In this document: in pieces, positions 3,061 to 51,565 of the stretch
Layout of the letters: each line of letters starts with the position of its first letter
Position numbering within the stretch: the first letter of the stretch is position 1
Virus record (IMG/VR): IMGVR_UViG_2529292922_000010
Source of the DNA: a virus
Lineage: Duplodnaviria; Heunggongvirae; Uroviricota; Caudoviricetes
Length of the DNA stretch: 64,000 bases
Direction: 5' to 3' (one strand)
Made by a program: the position numbers and the translations under genes
The notes under the pieces: generated by a model
Databases searched by the model: none
Told to the model about the DNA's origin: nothing
The model's input: only the letters and a program-made list of their open reading frames with translations

Positions 3061-4253
3061 TAATCATCATCCCCGTATAGCTTGCGGGTAACTTCTTCGT
3101 CTTCCTCCTCGTCTTCGTCCAGGTCTTGTTCCAGCCATGGGTCGTTTGATACACCTTCAGTATCAACATCTCCATAACCGCCTGTATCAACGATATCGGC
3201 GATTTCTTCCCTACGCTGCTCAATCCACAATGCGGCATCGGCGCGGCGGTTGGCGGCCCGTTCTCGCGCAACTTTGTCCAGATCTTCAAGAGAAGGGCCA
3301 CCGACGGCTGTTTGCCTTTCCTCATCATCGGTATTGGTCTTAGGAGCACGCAGATCGGCTTTGATTTGCTCCAGCATCAGGGGCGGCACTTTTCCGCCAT
3401 GCGCCTCGATGAATTCAGCTGCTTCCAGCACTGACCAGTTATTTTCACGCTTTCGTTCGTATGCCAGCTTAACAATGCCAGCTTGCCCCATAGATAAAGC
3501 GTGCTTTTCCGCCTCCCGGCTTTCTTTTCGATAGTTATTCCGGATGCTGTAAATGGTGTTGATCAGGCTGCTTATCTGCGCGGAACAGCTGTTTAGCATG
3601 CTCGCGATACGATATTCAGGCGGAGTCCCTTCATCATCGTCTTTTTGCTGATCGCGCATTTCCTGCACCAGACGAATACACGTATCCCTGGCGTTCTCCA
3701 GCATAAGGAGATGAGAGAGAGACTTTTCCAGAAGAGTGGTTTCCAGAACATCAGCCCCGGACCGACGCAACATAGCGCGCGCGGCCTTCCGCGCTTCAAC
3801 GTTATCTATCAGGTAATCGCCAGCTTCGAATTCAAAGCGTTCACCATCATCATCCAGGGTGTCGCGTTCCAGGCGATCACGTAAGGTCCGGTGGGCGCGG
3901 GTGATCACGTCATGATCATCAGAACGATCATTTATGCGCTTATTCTGGCGCTTCGCGTTCTCGACTGCGGCACTGACAACAGCATTAACTCTTTGTTTTT
4001 CAGCCATTTCAGCCACAATGTGATCACCTGCACGTTGATCATTAGCGTGATCAATGATCATGCTTTTTAGTGGTTTTCTGACAGGCTTATTTGGCTTACG
4101 GCTGTCCGCTGTTCCGGTGTCTTCTTTGAATGCACGGAGATAACGACGTGCGGTGTTTGGGTTGAGATTAAACTCGGCGGCATATTGTGCGATGGTGTAA
4201 CCACCATCTCGCGCCAGGCGAGCAAAATTCTTCTTGTGATCGTCCCAGGTCAC
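3060..4253 (-). CDS. pacA: terminase small subunit PacA (contains pac site)
   Basis: 397 aa, N-terminal HTH, acidic C-terminal tail, contains the GATC-rich pac cleavage region; size matches P1 PacA. Confidence 0.85.
3901..4060. other. pac packaging site: two clusters of TGATCA/G hexamers (3 + 4 GATC) flanking a ~90-bp spacer
   Basis: GATC at 3903, 3914, 3926 and 4022, 4037, 4049, 4056; matches the 7-hexamer Dam-methylated P1 pac architecture. Confidence 0.8.
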
Positions 4254-4339
4254 TTATGCTTCCTTTCGTATAAAACTCTTTTTGACGCGAGGGTAACGAA
4301 AGTCACATGTCAAAAGGCCCGGAACGGGCAAGCAATCAA

Positions 4340-4792
4340 TCAGATACGTGCGGATGTGGCATTACCGTAATGACGGTGCTGACGGACCACCTTATTGAAA
4401 AGTTGACGCGCCATCACCCAAGGCTGGTGCTCCCGGCGTTCCTTTTCGTCCTGCGTCATATAGAGTTCGTTCTGGAGTTTTTCATCAAACCGGCGCGGAG
4501 CGCGGCTGCGGCGAAAGAATTCAGGATTCAGAGAGTGGATCTGAAATCTACGTGGGCGTGTACTGTCATCAATCAAAACAGACGAATACTTAGACACAGC
4601 GATAGCCTTTAAGCGCAGATAAACATCGCGCTTATCGACATCCAGATGCGGGTATTCCTTTTCAAGAATTGCTGCGAGTTCTTTCGCTGATAGAAGAGAT
4701 TTAGTGCGGATCATGTAATCCGCAATCTCGTACGATGTTATTCGTGAGTGATTTATTTCCATGAAGTGGCGTCCCTGCCAGTTAAGTAACAT
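4340..4792 (-). CDS. lpa: late promoter activator-like protein (start probably at internal Met near 4762)
   Basis: about 150 aa; position between pdcA and pacA as in P1; C1 operator just upstream. Confidence 0.5.
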   Translation of the reverse strand: MLLNWQGRHFMEINHSRITSYEIADYMIRTKSLLSAKELAAILEKEYPHLDVDKRDVYLRLKAIAVSKYSSVLIDDSTRPRRFQIHSLNPEFFRRSRAPRRFDEKLQNELYMTQDEKERREHQPWVMARQLFNKVVRQHRHYGNATSARI

Positions 4793-4867
4793 CCTGTCAC
4801 CTACTGATTAGCCCATGTCAACTAATCAACGTCGAATATAATACCCTCGATTAAAGAAATAGCAATA

Positions 4868-4880
4868 CATTAGAGCAATT
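4868..4880 (-). promoter_or_regulatory. C1 operator-like site upstream of lpa
   Basis: CATTAGAGCAAT, variant of reverse-complement operator consensus. Confidence 0.45.
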
Positions 4881-5924
4881 TTATCTAACACTCGACGAAT
4901 GACTTGTGATAGCGCCGACTCCAAGCGCGTAATCAAAGAACAATCGTTGATGCATCGCCAGCCTACCGTGCGTCTTCTCCCAATTATCGCGGTCACGCTC
5001 AATATCACGCTGGCATGACTGGCACAGAGGAATAGCATAAATGTCATGCGCGCATAATCGACTATGACGAACGATATAAGGCGTAATGTGAGCGCCAGCT
5101 CCCGCAGCTCCACAGCCACAGCATGGACGGGAAGCCACAAAGTCCATGTACTCGGGCAATTTTAGCGATTGAAGTTTTGGTATCTTGAAATGCGCCATAC
5201 CTGGGTCGGAGTCAACATCCACAGGGCATACTTTTGCACGCATCGGCGCGGCGCGTTCTTCCATCATCTGAACATATGCTGTAGCGCGATCGTCATACGG
5301 GCGAATATCCGCCTCTTTCAGAGGTCCGCTATCCTGCGTTGCGGCTTTCATCTTATTTATTGATATACGGCAAACTTCTTCCGGCATCAGGTGCATCATG
5401 TTGCGCATGAAAGCCCACCAGCACAGTTCCTGAATACTTAAATCATGGCCATCTGAAAGCCCCATTTCCTGACGGGCGACATCCAGTATCCAGTTAACGC
5501 GATTATTATGCAGCGTTTCTTTCAGCTCATTAAAACCACGCATCCGGTAATGGTTATCGTGATGCCAGCACAACAACACCGCGCTATTGTCTCGTTCTGC
5601 GTGGACAATATGGTTGTCACACCAGCTACGATCTGCGGCCTGGCATTGCCCCTCTTTCCTGCGCAACCACGCCACCAGCGCGTCAATTCCACCAATACGG
5701 CGAAACAGTTCATCGCTGTTAAAAAACGGCTGCAACGCCTCATTTGTTGCCATAGTTTGCTCGGAAACAACGAGGCCGTCGTCCATGTGCTCGATTAACT
5801 CACGCGGCACCGGCTCCATAATAAATTTACGGCCAGCCTCCACCAGCTTTCTGACTTCCTGATCCACTTTGAATGTGGCGACGCCAAGCTCTTTTTGTAC
5901 AAAGGGAGTAATTACGGCTTTCAC
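4881..5924 (-). CDS. pdcA: hypothetical protein with Cys-rich C-terminal region (post-doc gene A position)
   Basis: 347-aa ORF; CCGCG...CQSCQ cysteine cluster; synteny with P1 pdcA. Confidence 0.5.
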
Positions 5925-5951: not shown

Positions 5952-6152
5952 TTATCTGCTGCCCGGCATTCTCTGTTTAAGCACAACCATTTCCTGACGG
6001 CATAACACAGCAATAGCAGTCCTGGCTCCAATTTGCTTACCAACCAGGTATTGCTTTACCTCGCGGCGACTCACGCCATCAAGAAGCATCTTTAACGCTT
6101 CACGGGACAATTTGTTGTATTTGCGTGCCATTAATCTACTCCGCAGAACCAT
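5952..6152 (-). CDS. pdcB: small basic protein (post-doc gene B position), start likely at MARKYNK
   Basis: about 60-aa ORF directly downstream of doc. Confidence 0.4.
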
Positions 6153-6516
6153 ACAATCTACGTAACGTGTCGGCGACAGAAGATACAGATATCTCGCCAG
6201 TCGCAGCGCCTACAGTAAGGTCTGCCAGTTCAGGTGAATCAAATACCTGCACCCCGTTACGGCGTAGAAATAACAGCGCACTGTTTAGCGCGGTACGCTT
6301 ATTGGCATCATTGAATATATGCCCTCTCGCTGTAGCCACCAGGTAGGTGGCGGAGACTTCGAAAAGGTCGGTGATCTCTTCGTAGGCAACTCTGGCCTGA
6401 ACTCTCCCGATAATGGCCTCTGCCCTACCCGGATCTGACATTCCCGGCAGGCCGCCGTAGCGGTTTATATTCGCATCATGAAGCGCAATAAGTTCTTCCG
6501 GTGATATATGCCTCAT
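6136..6516 (-). CDS. doc: Doc toxin (Fic/Doc family kinase, death on curing)
   Basis: 126 aa; sequence [17 protein letters not shown]...[16 protein letters not shown] essentially matches recalled P1 Doc, including the Fic motif HxFx(D/N)ANKR. Confidence 0.95.
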
Positions 6517-6737
6517 TATCGGTTAACCAGTTCCTTATTGGTGGATTCCAGGGTGTCAAACAGGGATGCAAATTCAGCATCCAGCGCCGCTTTTTTGTAG
6601 GCTTCGAAAGTAGCCTTGCTGACAATTACTGCTGGCTCACGGCCTCTGCGGGTGATTTCAACCTCTTCCCCGGCTTCAACATTGTTGAGCACTTCAGAAA
6701 GGTTGCCACGCGCGGTTCGGAAGTTAATGGATTGCAT
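6516..6737 (-). CDS. phd: Phd antitoxin (prevents host death)
   Basis: 73 aa from [16 protein letters not shown]; overlaps doc start by 1 nt; matches recalled P1 Phd. Confidence 0.95.
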
Positions 6738-6809
6738 AAACACCTCGTGTACTCGTTATGTGTACACAATTATAAACTTCACAGGCATAAAGCACCAGCA
6801 CTTTGCAGC

Positions 6810-46893: not shown

Positions 46894-47403
46894 ATGGGGC
46901 ACAATAACACTAAGGGAAACCGTAAATTTATTAAGGGCCGCTATACTGCCAACGCGGCCAAAGGCGAACGACTGGTATCTTCTGAATTCCAGCTCACTTT
47001 TGCAGGCCATGAAGATATCAGCGTACTGGTTCGCACGTCGCAAATTCCTGAAATGACCCGCGAGGATGTGGAGGACTATGGTCCGAATGGTGTGAAGTTC
47101 AACCAGCACGGTCCAATTCGAAACTCTGGGGAAATCCAGGTCCAGTGCGTGGAGACTATCGAAGGCGATATTCTTCAGTTCATTAAAGATCGCATTGCGG
47201 CGAAGGACTATGTTGATATCACGATGGCTGCTACCCCTGAATCCAAATCTTCCGGGGTTAACGCTGTGACAAAAGCTGCTACAACAATTGAAATGTTGGA
47301 CTGCAAAATCTACAGTGATGCAATCGACTTTAGTACCGAAGATGTGACTGCCGCTGTGCGCCCGTCACTTCGTATCGTCTACAACTGGATTGAGTGGGAT
47401 TAA
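46894..47403 (+). CDS. tail structural protein
   Basis: 169-aa ORF followed by terminator. Confidence 0.4.
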   Translation: MGHNNTKGNRKFIKGRYTANAAKGERLVSSEFQLTFAGHEDISVLVRTSQIPEMTREDVEDYGPNGVKFNQHGPIRNSGEIQVQCVETIEGDILQFIKDRIAAKDYVDITMAATPESKSSGVNAVTKAATTIEMLDCKIYSDAIDFSTEDVTAAVRPSLRIVYNWIEWD

Positions 47404-47422
47404 GAGTCATCCCTTGTATTTT

Positions 47423-47446
47423 AAAGCTCCTTCGGGAGCTTTTTTA
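47423..47446 (+). terminator. rho-independent terminator
   Basis: AAAGCTCCTTCGGGAGCTTTTTTATTT. Confidence 0.8.
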
Positions 47447-47519
47447 TTTGGAGAGGAAAGGGTGCATTGAGGATACCTGACACACGAAGAGTGGCGAGGA
47501 TCTCTCCCCGCCAGGTCTC

Positions 47520-47675
47520 TTACCTTTCAGATTCGTAGGCTGTGAAGACAGTGACCTCCGTCTGGCCGGTTCGGATTCGTACCTCGCAGAGGTCTTTCCT
47601 CGTTACCAGTGCCGTCACAATGACGGTTAAACAGATGACGATCAGAGCGATTAACATCGCTTTTTGCTGCTTCAT
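47520..47675 (-). CDS. hok: Hok/Gef-family type I toxin
   Basis: 51 aa MKQQKAMLIALIVICLTVIVTALVTRKDLCEVRIRTGQTEVTVFTAYESER, near-identical pattern to Gef/HokC. Confidence 0.9.
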   Translation of the reverse strand: MKQQKAMLIALIVICLTVIVTALVTRKDLCEVRIRTGQTEVTVFTAYESER

Positions 47676-47733
47676 AGCCTGCTTCTCCTTGACCTTTTGG
47701 TCGGTAAGAGGCTAATCTACGTATGCTAAGCAT
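47527..47733 (-). CDS. mok: Mok-like overlapping reading frame (translational coupler for hok)
   Basis: 68-aa ORF overlapping hok in another frame, as in hok/mok/sok loci. Confidence 0.5.
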   Translation of the reverse strand: MLSIRRLASYRPKGQGEAGYEAAKSDVNRSDRHLFNRHCDGTGNEERPLRGTNPNRPDGGHCLHSLRI

Positions 47734-47770
47734 AGATGTGGCCTCAGATTAATGTTAAGCGTCTTGCAGG
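47690..47770 (+). ncRNA. putative Sok-like antisense RNA region (approximate)
   Basis: inferred from locus architecture opposite the mok start; boundaries not determined. Confidence 0.25.
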
Positions 47771-47856
47771 ACGCGTAATGTTATCTGGGGCTTTCTTCTA
47801 TCTGCTTTTCGGGTAATGCCTGAAGCAGATAGCCTCAAGCACCCGCAACGATTGTA

Positions 47857-48156
47857 TCAATGTCTGGCTTTTTTTCTATAGAAATCACCTGGAAGGGTGA
47901 ATATCCACATCAGAAGAAATGTTGCAGCAAACATGATCCCTAATGGCCAGACCGCGCCAAAGAAAATCCATACTAAGATCTCCTCTGCTTGTTCTTTGCG
48001 GTCGATATCGACAAGCATTTTTCGGCTGATCATGTATACACAGAAGCCAATACAAACATATCCTGCAAAAGCGATCGCTAACTGTAAAAAATCAGATTGC
48101 ATCTCCGACCTCAAACTGAAAACGCCAGGTGACTCCAGATTAGAGCAATCTATCAC
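47857..48156 (-). CDS. small membrane protein (two TM helices)
   Basis: 99-aa ORF, hydrophobic segments; start may be internal Met. Confidence 0.35.
   Translation of the reverse strand: MIDCSNLESPGVFSLRSEMQSDFLQLAIAFAGYVCIGFCVYMISRKMLVDIDRKEQAEEILVWIFFGAVWPLGIMFAATFLLMWIFTLPGDFYRKKARH
48137..48149 (-). promoter_or_regulatory. C1 operator-like half site
   Basis: AGATTAGAGCAAT. Confidence 0.35.
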
Positions 48157-48998
48157 CCTCTAAATCCTGCCGGTATACCCCATTGTTCGTTATCTTTATT
48201 TTTGGCTAAAACCGCATTAAGAGCTTCGTTTACCGTCATGCAATGCGGCAAATTATCGAAGTTTGATACCCCGCCAATATCAGGAGAACGCTTGTTCTTC
48301 AGGTAAGCATATTTCCGCGCTGCCGCCTCTACTTTCTGCTTGAACTCATGTTTTTGAGCGCGTTTTTTGGATAACCGCAGATTGTCAGCCTTTGCTTTTG
48401 CCTCGGCGATCCATGAAGTCAGTTTTTTGAGGCTGGTCGTTTCGGCACCGCCGGAAACTGATCTTTTTGTTTTTTTAATTTGTGACTTCTTATTCTTTAT
48501 TGCCACGTCATCCTGACAGGGGGAGGGGGTATCATTTTGACATGGGGGTGTGGATAAAAAATTAAATAAAGCCAATGTCTTAGCGAGAACAGCTTTAACC
48601 TTGGTTGCCGCTGAAGAGATCTTTAATTTGCTTTCAATCAGCGCATTTTTGGCTTGTTGTGCGAAGGCCAAAAAGGATGGTGTAAACCGGTACAGGTTAG
48701 CGCGACGTTCACGGTGATCGCCGATAACAATCTCTACAGACAGGATTCCTTTGTTTACAGCTTCACGGAATGCACGAACGACGGTTGATTGGCTATAACC
48801 AGTTTCTGCCGCGATCAGGCGGTGAGGCTTGTGAATGAAGTATTCACTGGTTGTTGCCGCGAGATTTGCACATTGCGACAGGATATGCCCGGCGCTACGG
48901 GATAGACCGGAGTGTGTTACAAAGCAGGCCAATTCATAGCCAGAAAAAGTAAAATCGCTCATCGTTATACAGCTCAGGAAAGTGACTTTAGCCAGCAT
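48153..48998 (-). CDS. repL: lytic replication protein RepL
   Basis: 281 aa, basic C-terminal half; downstream of kilA under a C1 operator as in P1. Confidence 0.65.
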   Translation of the reverse strand: MLAKVTFLSCITMSDFTFSGYELACFVTHSGLSRSAGHILSQCANLAATTSEYFIHKPHRLIAAETGYSQSTVVRAFREAVNKGILSVEIVIGDHRERRANLYRFTPSFLAFAQQAKNALIESKLKISSAATKVKAVLAKTLALFNFLSTPPCQNDTPSPCQDDVAIKNKKSQIKKTKRSVSGGAETTSLKKLTSWIAEAKAKADNLRLSKKRAQKHEFKQKVEAAARKYAYLKNKRSPDIGGVSNFDNLPHCMTVNEALNAVLAKNKDNEQWGIPAGFRG

Positions 48999-49027: not shown

Positions 49028-49828
49028 TTAGCGCGTTGCCGCGACAGGTACCAGCACACCAGCATCAAGCAATCGCTTCATCAGCCACTGCTGACCTTTG
49101 CCGGTTATACGAGTCGTGAAAGAAATCCTGCTTCCATTGCTTGTATCGATCACGGTTTCTTTAAGGGTGAAATACCCACGGGATATGTATTCTTGTTTGG
49201 GGACGTTCCTGCGTTCACCGGTTGCGATCAGAATTCCGTTATCACGCAACCAGGTGAAGAGATAGTTTTGGCCCAGGCCGAGCACTTTGGCATAGTTGCC
49301 GATTAGAACCCCGCTGGCGGTAGCAACGCGTTCGGCGAATTCGACTTTAGGTGCATCCATAAGCATTTTTTGCTCCAGCCGTTGCTTTTGCTCTGCCAGG
49401 TCGGCAGCCAAACGGAGAGCTTCAGGGAGACTCTGCGGAATAGCAGGTTGTAATCTTCCGGCTCGATAGTCGATAAATGTCTGGTTTACCTTCAGCCGAA
49501 ACGCGGGAGAAATCCAGCCTGCGTACTCCACAGCGAGCAATTCATGGGCAAAAGTGCCGCCGCCACGGCCTTCGAACGAAACTATGCAATTCTGCATAGT
49601 TTCTTTTTCAAGCTCTTCGATGAGCTGTTTTGCTGACAGCGTTCTTAGCCATTGAGCTGGCGCTTTATGGGCACCGAGTCCGCTCGCTCTGTGTAGAGCA
49701 TTAAGGTTGTAACGGCCAGCGCGGTCGGTCGTAATTTCAACACCACAAATAACGGGCAGAGTGGTTGAAGGATCGACATTTTGATGAAGGTTTGATATAT
49801 TCATATCCGCATTGAATGTTTGTTGCAT
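49028..49828 (-). CDS. kilA: KilA (KilA-N domain plus antirepressor-like C-terminal domain)
   Basis: 266 aa; KilA-N-type N-terminus; C-terminal domain shared with Ant. Confidence 0.75.
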   Translation of the reverse strand: MQQTFNADMNISNLHQNVDPSTTLPVICGVEITTDRAGRYNLNALHRASGLGAHKAPAQWLRTLSAKQLIEELEKETMQNCIVSFEGRGGGTFAHELLAVEYAGWISPAFRLKVNQTFIDYRAGRLQPAIPQSLPEALRLAADLAEQKQRLEQKMLMDAPKVEFAERVATASGVLIGNYAKVLGLGQNYLFTWLRDNGILIATGERRNVPKQEYISRGYFTLKETVIDTSNGSRISFTTRITGKGQQWLMKRLLDAGVLVPVAATR

Positions 49829-51249: not shown

Positions 51250-51340
51250 GTTACGGCCTCACAATCAGGTTTAACAACCTGCTACCCGCTGCTAAACAGG
51301 TGGCAGGACGTGACGGGGTTAGCAGACTGGCGATTGTGAA
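51250..51340 (-). ncRNA. putative C4 antisense repressor RNA region (approximate)
   Basis: position between operator at 51566 and icd, as in P1 immI; boundaries not verified. Confidence 0.3.
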
Positions 51341-51565
51341 ACCAGCAGGCCGAAGCCTCCCCATCACGCCCCACCATAATTTGGGCGTAACGCGGTTTTA
51401 CGGACACAAAAATACCGCAATATCGGATATCTGCGGCTGTCCGCACAATCATTCAGGCTGCTAAACCCGGTCGCAGAATTTGCTACGACGGCGGAACTAT
51501 AAGCCTGAACGATTAAAAGGTCAATATGATGCGAAAAGATAGCATTCGCGACTTAAAAATACAAA

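Follow-up and report, generated by a model that had tools for sequence, protein, structure and literature searches.

The locus around the toxin gene at positions 47520-47675 on the minus strand of the window, the whole stretch of 64,000 nucleotides of viral DNA that was analysed, is, judged from its sequence, a complete member of the hok/mok/sok type I toxin-antitoxin family, and the cassette is probably functional. The toxin open reading frame encodes 51 amino acids from an ATG start and is uninterrupted in the ORF list. Its translation is letter-for-letter identical to the Hok/Gef peptide that a preceding sequence-only reading, made without database searches, had quoted from this strand. The 51-aa product matches the entire 42-position profile of Pfam HOK_GEF (PF01848; E=2.4e-22, 78.7 bits with a cutoff of 22) and also PHROG 251, 'MokW-like host killing' (4.9e-32). 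The NCBIfam Hok models matched as well, with scores below their curated cutoffs (49.5 vs 73), and for this reason these matches were left out of the decision on family membership.

We also scanned the entire window with Rfam at the gathering threshold, which gave a single match at the hok locus. The family RF01794 'sok' aligned from end to end (model positions 1-157 of 157) with 47670-47844 on the minus strand (114.8 bits, E=2.2e-25, gathering score 59). Matches of this strength are well outside what chance would give. This one is on the strand that encodes hok and stops at the hok AUG, so what the model covers is the leader of the hok mRNA, the complement of Sok; as direct proof of an antisense gene it was dropped. 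The sequence-only reading had suggested a search for Sok and hok mRNA elements, and beyond the end-to-end Rfam match the tac/fbi and ucb/dcb pairs were found. The toxin ORF is intact, and both a Sok promoter-like site and the fold-back elements of the hok mRNA are present. The span of 47520-47780 first proposed for the locus was correct in location but too narrow in extent, since the complete locus reaches from the hok promoter (47878) to fbi (47460). Its parts are as follows.

47851-47878, minus strand: hok/mok promoter, TAGAAA, 16 nt, TACAAT with TG (extended −10); 9 of 12 positions match in the promoter scan
47460-47844, minus strand: full-length hok/mok mRNA, about 385 nt, with inferred ends; the conserved unit among hok loci
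47833-47844, minus strand: tac (translational activator element), GGGUGCUUGAGG; 5′ end of the mRNA
47783-47793, minus strand: ucb, or anti-SD box, AAGCCCCAGAU; predicted to hide the mok Shine-Dalgarno (SD) in the closed form and to be the tac partner in the open form
47725-47795, plus strand: Sok antisense RNA gene, 71 nt; falls base for base onto the annotated sokW of phage 933W
47527-47733, minus strand: mok leader ORF, 68 codons, ATG at 47733; +1 frame relative to hok
47708-47714, minus strand: dcb (downstream complementary box), UAGCCUC; predicted mok SD partner in the open, processed mRNA
47689-47718, plus strand: Sok promoter candidate, TTGACC (47689-47694), 18 nt, TAATCT (47713-47718)
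47520-47675, minus strand: hok toxin ORF, 51 aa; SD AAGGAG at 47685-47690, AUG at 47675
47493-47512, minus strand: 3′ stem-loop, GGCGGGGAG-AGAU-CCUCGCC; G+C-rich, predicted protective end of the processed mRNA
47460-47472, minus strand: fbi (fold-back inhibitory element), CCUCAAUGCACCC; complements tac with one bulged U

Each of these elements is intact in sequence and evolutionarily conserved. The −10 hexamer of the hok promoter overlaps the TGA stop of an upstream 81-aa ORF and aligns with TAGAAT at the hokW locus of 933W, and the mRNA would begin with the G at 47844. An internal promoter-like site on the minus strand (47758-47729) was treated as chance, because a start from this site would fall downstream of the mok AUG and about 1.2 chance matches are expected in the region. 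Folding of a 390-nt hok RNA gave a minimum free energy (MFE) of −154.7 kcal/mol, against a mean of −109 for dinucleotide shuffles (z=−8.4). In this full-length fold the 5′ and 3′ ends are paired as the tac/fbi closing stem; the tac:fbi duplex amounts to −21.0 kcal/mol and fbi lies 60 nt beyond the hok stop. The mok SD is paired with the CCCC of ucb, in that C55, C56 and C58 of ucb face G103, G102 and G100 of the SD, respectively. When the last 40 nt of the RNA were removed, the 5′ end was predicted to refold locally. In the Rfam consensus structure of the open leader, the partner of tac is ucb instead of fbi, and the GAGGC of the SD is paired with the GCCUC of dcb. The 3′ stem-loop, at which the processed mRNA is predicted to end, has been found to be functionally important in R1 (PMC9841398).

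The same architecture was followed across other hok loci. A Hok-peptide scan of species-representative genomes returned 47 loci. In 40 or more hok loci from other genera the homology starts within 3 nt of 47844, and most of them end at 47459-47460; these limits at the +1 and at fbi indicate that the conserved unit extends exactly from tac to fbi. When each locus was folded as a duplex on its own, tac and fbi paired in 29 of the 32 related loci, with coupled changes on the two sides, such as Escherichia-type GGGUGC...GCACCC to Photorhabdus-type GGGCGC...GCGCCC, or GAGG/CCUC to GAGA/UCUC. In seven loci a U to C change at tac position 4 covaries with A to G in its fbi partner. The three exceptions are a locus with a replaced 5′ end (L012), one in which IS186 replaces the 3′ end (L017) and one in which the contig end removes the 3′ region (L044).

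For a column-wise comparison, the full-length fold of the window was projected onto an alignment of 29 loci (from Escherichia, Kluyvera, Citrobacter, Photorhabdus, Erwinia and others), with controls in which the 3′ partners were slid by 1-3 columns. In the projected fold 85.6% of cells form a standard pair, compared to 38-44% in the slid controls, and 40 pairs are changed on both sides, compared to 11-21. The observed covariation score was reached by none of 500 shuffles. Among the individual helices, helix 1 (tac/fbi) is paired in 90.5% of cells and shows a compensatory U-A to C-G change, helix 5 (the closed ucb/mok SD pairing) is paired in 91.4% with six covarying pairs, and helix 17 (the 3′ stem-loop) is paired in 87% with four pairs that changed in a compensatory manner. 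The outer half of the tac/fbi helix is under-counted in these figures, because MAFFT split the columns of the fbi bulge in Photorhabdus-type loci; each locus was therefore rechecked by the separate duplex folding given above. Helices 6 and 7 of the projected fold, which join the mok start with the 3′ region, are paired in just 57-59% across loci and are not claimed here. The open leader taken from the Rfam consensus (tac/ucb, Sok-target hairpin and SDmok/dcb) is paired in 73.6% of cells compared to 35-47% when slid. Its tac/ucb pairs form in 28-29 of the 29 loci and its SD/dcb pairs in 27-29; since these pairs never vary, they are conserved but carry no covariation support.

The overlapping mok-like frame at 47527-47733 had likewise been proposed from the sequence, and a 68-codon ATG ORF is indeed present there. 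Its SD, GAGG at 47742-47745, lies 8 nt upstream of the start, and the frame spans the SD and AUG of hok and continues past the hok start. The mok of R1 also lies in the +1 frame and overlaps hok out of frame. In the 29 loci the GAGG is invariant and the aligned ATG is conserved, while the downstream frame differs between loci: 933W, Photorhabdus and most chromosomal copies have mok in the hok frame, the window and two Kluyvera/Enterobacteriaceae loci have a long +1 frame, and several Escherichia and Erwinia loci have an ORF of 19 codons. This variable frame downstream of the mok AUG fits the report that translation matters in hok/sok only as far as the hok start (PMC9841398). No weight should be placed on a 'Mok protein' as such.

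The antisense RNA would be expressed from 47725-47795. In its predicted fold (−29.1 kcal/mol, z=−4.8), 15 unpaired nt at the 5′ end are followed by a long hairpin and then a U-rich tail; the unpaired 5′ tail is complementary to the mok start region, and the hairpin carries compensatory changes (helix 5 of the 29-locus alignment). No part of the leader varies more among loci than the stretch to which the Sok 5′ tail would bind. A strict scan for the sigma-70 consensus called no plus-strand promoter for Sok, because the −10 TAATCT of the candidate matches at just three of six positions. In the candidate, as in R1, the Sok −35 sits within the complement of the hok SD. We placed the promoter by this R1 layout and by its position, which is conserved in 29 of 29 loci; it is a sequence-level call. 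For the relative hokW-sokW, sokW RNA has been detected and shown to be antitoxic (Takada 2021, PMC8621323).

As the sequence-only reading had stated, the locus lies between tail genes and repL, in the following surroundings.

49028-49828, minus strand: kilA
48153-48998, minus strand: repL
47446-48138, no strand assigned: replacement segment of 693 bp, in the place of 1826 bp of P1; contains the 81-aa ORF and hok/sok
47857-48102, minus strand: 81-aa ORF with two hydrophobic stretches; a hypothetical protein in RefSeq
46894-47403, plus strand: bplB/tail-tube gene; pmgG and gene 21 are also on the plus strand

The window is marked as P1-like by a C4 RNA, C4 targets and three tRNAs. When compared by blastn to NC_005856 (P1), positions 50000-48139 and 47445-46001 of the window are 96-99% identical and the interior is unrelated; no part of 47446-48138 aligns with the repL-bplB interval of NC_005856. 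At this site P1 harbours rlfA (DUF3800), rlfB and pmgF on 1826 bp, and hok is absent, so that the expectation of a canonical P1 without a hok locus proved right when the two were compared. The left breakpoint falls inside the C1 operator Orlf/Op55, past the first 11 of its 17 bp (ATTGCTCTAAT at 48149-48139), and the right breakpoint adjoins the bplB terminator hairpin. The rlf-type allele is common to P7, P1 MG1655 Z1 and JL22. The repL-bplB site has been described as variable region 5 of P1-like phage-plasmids (PMC9603915).

The 81-aa ORF aligns with positions 1-81 of the PHROG 3772 profile through residues 19-99 of a longer GTG ORF (6e-54). In the phage collection it occurs in P1-like records only, and it is co-inherited with hok in P1-like elements. 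We rejected it as a part of the toxin-antitoxin system, because the conserved hok cassette elsewhere begins at the −10 hexamer or at the +1 and in no case takes in this ORF. The phd-doc module that had been placed at 6.1-6.7 kb was recovered via Pfam PhdYeFM and Fic/DOC (phd 6516-6743, doc 6136-6516), and together with hok/sok it would provide the replicon with two independent addiction modules.

The presence of a hok/sok cassette in P1-like elements is already known, as it is annotated in hundreds of public records and mentioned in the literature. The substitution of the P1 allele was noted in a 2019 paper, and a 2026 preprint mentions type I and type II toxin-antitoxin modules on one P1-like plasmid. 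When we searched the literature for hok together with P1-like or phage-plasmid terms, we found passing mentions, and a functional study of the hok allele was not found. A 501-bp segment of the window recurs with 99-100% identity in six phage records and in no fewer than 416 plasmids of PLSDB. In total, repL is found in 507 PLSDB plasmids, the hok allele in at least 416 and rlfA-rlfB-pmgF in 99. The earlier suggestion that hok is cargo is thus true relative to laboratory P1, but not among the repL plasmids of PLSDB. RefSeq labels the toxin hokD/HokD. Outside P1-like elements, the cassette is closest to the hok loci that Rac-type and Stx/lambdoid prophages carry (87-91% identity), and a homologous hok/sok cassette was found in 4745 of 5426 complete E. 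coli genomes (87%), with a median of two copies and a maximum of nine. Sok RNAs from these chromosomal loci might cross-neutralise the hok of the window. Most chromosomal hok loci of K-12 are reportedly inactive, a finding ascribed to Pedersen and Gerdes in 1999.

In about half of the matching plasmids (227 of 452) the hok 3′ region is split at 47498/47508. In p1540-3, an IS4-family element (IS421/IS186) lies within the 3′ stem-loop and comes with an 11-bp duplication of 47498-47508. Venturini et al. described IS186B with the direct repeats GGATCTCTCC, the complement of the loop of the 3′ stem-loop, and in the K-12-type hokC locus (L017) the end of IS186 is located at the homologous base. To judge from these insertions, the 3′ stem-loop is a hot spot for IS186-family elements in relatives of the window. 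As an insertion at this point removes fbi and breaks the protective stem-loop, the toxin mRNA should be inactivated, as mutagenesis of R1 would suggest (PMC9841398). With about half of the plasmid alleles disrupted in this way, the cassette appears to be often dispensable. In the window, the stem-loop carries no such insertion.

Its homologues R1 hok/sok and hokW-sokW of prophage Sp5 are the basis on which we infer that the cassette is transcribed, that its mRNA is processed at the 3′ end, that Sok turns over and the duplex is cut by RNase III, and that Hok is toxic; the cassette would then work as follows. A weak constitutive promoter would give rise to a stable hok mRNA of about 385 nt, in which tac at the 5′ end pairs with fbi at the 3′ end and ucb masks the mok SD. 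Because of this pairing and masking, the full-length RNA would neither be translated nor be bound by Sok. Slow trimming of the 3′ end as far as the 3′ stem-loop would remove fbi; tac would then pair with ucb and the mok SD would be released to the dcb hairpin, so that the refolded RNA becomes translatable and at the same time a target of Sok. In plasmid-bearing cells, the abundant but unstable 71-nt Sok would pair with the mok start region and RNase III would cut the duplex. In plasmid-free cells, Sok would decay first, after which mok would be translated and hok with it through translational coupling, and the 51-aa Hok peptide would then damage the inner membrane.

We put the probability at roughly 0.6 that the cassette serves, by this canonical hok/sok mechanism, in post-segregational killing that stabilises a low-copy plasmid prophage alongside phd-doc. 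Addiction modules are expected in an element of this kind, and this was counted in favour of post-segregational killing. Against it stand the weak −10 of Sok (TAATCT, three of six positions) and its 18-nt spacer, as do the frequent IS186-family disruption of plasmid alleles, the homologous E. coli loci whose Sok RNAs might neutralise this hok, and the reported inactivity of most K-12 hok loci. The closest tested relative, hokW-sokW, aids phage release instead of replicon stability, an observation that speaks against a stabilising role.

With the same RNA mechanism, Hok could alternatively help in lysis, if Sok is lost upon induction and Hok damages the membrane early enough to improve phage release. 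The Sp5 cassette, which is 87% identical to that of the window, has been demonstrated to act in phage release (PMC8621323). In addition, hok lies directly downstream of the C1-repressed lytic operon kilA-repL and of the 81-aa ORF in the same orientation, with just a weak terminator-like hairpin between the lytic operon and hok. However, lysis by canonical P1 is efficient in the absence of hok, an IS element disrupts half of the natural alleles, and the cassette retains every element of the slow-processing design needed for post-segregational killing; we consider a role in lysis, although the main alternative, doubtful. The position of a co-oriented hok behind the lytic operon and a weak hairpin suggests that lytic read-through could run against the Sok promoter. 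One might go further and suppose that Hok is wired to prophage induction, with read-through hitting the convergent Sok promoter and yielding 5′-extended hok RNAs without the tac/fbi lock, which would aid lysis early; we regard this as a long shot. If it were true, a single cassette would act as an addiction module during lysogeny and time lysis during lytic growth.

It is also conceivable that the cassette is a selfish or decaying passenger, acquired by recombination from a lambdoid or Rac-type prophage and kept by linkage without meaningful benefit, or silenced by chromosomal Sok. Its close relatives in Rac, Stx and other lambdoid prophages (87-91% identity) and its many homologues in E. coli (4745 of 5426 genomes) would suit such an origin, as would the IS186-family insertions in the 3′ hairpin of about 50% of plasmid copies, at the same site as IS186 of the K-12-type hokC. 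We nevertheless find a passenger distinctly unlikely, for the window copy is intact in every element and the hok allele is the majority form among P1-like plasmids; moreover, the variable target of the Sok tail would fit specificity of Sok better than general cross-talk. Finally, the cassette could act in phage exclusion: a virulent infection would stop host transcription, Sok would decay, and Hok would kill the cell and thereby protect sibling lysogens. Pecota and Wood are said to have seen R1 hok/sok reduce the propagation of T4 in 1996, but the reported effect was modest. Defence cargo is common in variable regions of prophages and phage-plasmids, of which the repL-bplB site is a recognised one (PMC9603915). 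On the other hand, there is no specific sequence support for exclusion and no defence-system genes were seen among the annotated neighbours, which leaves it very improbable.

The practical consequences are modest. Laboratory P1 is an unrepresentative reference at the hok site, as most natural P1-like plasmids carry hok/sok besides phd-doc. Such plasmids often carry resistance genes, and hok/sok may contribute to their persistence. The recurrent insertion of IS186-family elements offers a natural comparison of intact and disrupted alleles for the weight of the cassette in plasmid stability. The window copy is further a clean and complete example for annotation pipelines, which at present label the toxin alone (hokD, or wrongly MokW) and leave mok, Sok and the mRNA elements unannotated. 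The current view of hok/sok biology is unchanged by this locus.

Among known systems, the closest counterparts are p12579_1 (NC_017653, from E. coli O55:H7 RM12579), phi456 (OR339795) and 'Punavirus P1' MH422554, which share 99-99.8% nucleotide identity with the window over repL, the 81-aa ORF, hok/sok and bplB and have an identical gene order. MH422554 labels the toxin MokW, whereas RefSeq names it HokD. Between the natural P1-like allele and the window there is essentially no difference, save for IS186/IS421 in about half of the plasmids. Canonical P1 (NC_005856) has the same flanking genes, kilA-repL to one side of the site and bplB-pmgG-21 to the other.

The hokW-mokW-sokW locus of 933W/Sp5 (AF125520) is 87% identical over the full transcript (47856-47460), with identical positions of tac, ucb, dcb, fbi, the Sok hairpin and the promoters, and HokW and the Hok of the window are identical at 47 of 51 residues. 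The 933W locus is one base shorter between mok and hok, which brings mokW in frame with hokW, whereas the window has mok in the +1 frame. Of 19 positions in the Sok 5′ tail and its target, about 5 are different between the two loci, and the Sok −35 is TTGACC with an 18-nt spacer in the window but TTGCCT with a 17-nt spacer in 933W. The host replicon also differs, being a lambdoid integrated prophage for 933W and a plasmid prophage for the window. For hokW-sokW, toxin and antitoxin activity of a working pair have been experimentally proven (Takada et al. 2021, PMC8621323). Toxicity as well as the dependence on Sok, RNase III and Hfq was shown; after mitomycin C treatment of Sp5, sokW RNA vanishes and HokW appears about 1 h ahead of the endolysin, and deletion of hokW-sokW halves the amount of released phage (PMC8621323).

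The family prototype, hok/mok/sok (parB) of R1, has the same parts and the same alternative pairings (tac/fbi, ucb/SD, tac/ucb and SD/dcb; PMC9841398), and the Rfam family built around it matches the window at 114.8 bits. At the protein level, the Hok of the window shares about 42% identity with the Hok type that conjugative plasmids carry, and the nucleotide sequences are too diverged for blastn against R1. It is 96% identical to chromosomal copies of the HokD (relF) type in E. coli and Shigella and 80-82% identical to the HokC (gef) type. Loci of the hokC type share the full leader and the 3′ elements with the window, whereas in the K-12-type hokD (L013) the homology begins at the hok SD and just the ORF and the 3′ part are retained. 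The K-12-type hokC (L017) has IS186 in its 3′ hairpin and is without fbi, while the window copy is complete. By these identities, the window copy belongs to the HokD/HokC/HokW subfamily of chromosomes and prophages.

IS186/IS421 recurs as an insertion in the hok 3′ stem-loop, where it occurs both in plasmids with the window's hok allele and in a K-12-type hokC. The window copy and one interrupted relative are as follows.

47493-47512, minus strand: hok 3′ stem-loop, uninterrupted in the window copy
3863-5202 of the related locus L052: IS421/IS186 insertion in the hok 3′ stem-loop

Among 452 plasmids carrying the window's hok allele, 227 (about half) are split at the positions corresponding to 47498/47508, and the split is accompanied by an 11-bp duplication. 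In a K-12-type chromosomal hokC copy (L017), an IS186 end lies at the base homologous to the window's split site.

Close to this end of the cassette lies the terminator of the convergent bplB gene.

47423-47442, plus strand: bplB terminator hairpin, AAAGCTCC-TTCG-GGAGCTTT, followed by a T-run

The hairpin is located only ~17 nt past fbi and, when read on the minus strand in the direction of hok, it is without a proper U-tract. Several relatives of the cassette have a T-run immediately after fbi.

At the other end, the Rfam model RF01794 matches 47670-47844 on the minus strand. Despite its name, 'sok antitoxin', the match has the sense of hok and ends at the hok AUG. Effectively, RF01794 models the leader of the processed hok mRNA, comprising the tac/ucb stem, the Sok-target hairpin and the SD/dcb stem, and strand assignments based on it need care. 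In the HokD/HokC/HokW subfamily (loci L004-L050 of our 29-locus alignment, window included), three types of mok frame were found: one shares the reading frame of hok, one overlaps hok extensively in +1, and one is a 19-codon leader. The window mok, starting at 47733, is of the long +1 overlap type. The mok Shine-Dalgarno sequence and start codon are constant across all three types and, as judged from the aligned sequences, what is conserved in mok seems to be translation of the leader only, and not a Mok protein.

When 5426 complete E. coli genomes were searched with window 47400-47900, 4745 contained at least one homologue of the cassette, with a median of 2 and a maximum of 9; most of these are chromosomal and 80-95% identical. 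Within the leader, variability is greatest where it pairs with the Sok 5′ tail, which may limit cross-talk between copies. The hok genes found on very short contigs of two non-enterobacterial assemblies, Acinetobacter idrijaensis (L014, 275 bp, 100% identical to the window) and Xanthomonas pisi (L026, 431 bp, 88% nucleotide identity), most likely represent contamination by E. coli or a P1 vector.

Between hok and repL we found one further ORF.

47857-48102, minus strand: 81-aa ORF (PHROG 3772) containing two hydrophobic segments

Within the phage collection this ORF is confined to P1-like records; Salmonella phage SJ46 carries a version with 44% identity. Since no separate promoter could be detected for it in the window, the ORF may be co-transcribed with repL. 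Compared with canonical P1, the left recombination breakpoint falls within the C1 operator Orlf/Op55, of which the first 11 of 17 bp (ATTGCTCTAAT, 48139-48149), 4 nt past the repL stop, are retained and the remainder is replaced. Elsewhere, the window carries standard P1 tRNA and immunity features.

28363-30592 and 51296-51502: three tRNA genes (Met-type with CAT anticodon, Thr-TGT and Asn-GTT), and the C4 antisense RNA with its targets a1/b1
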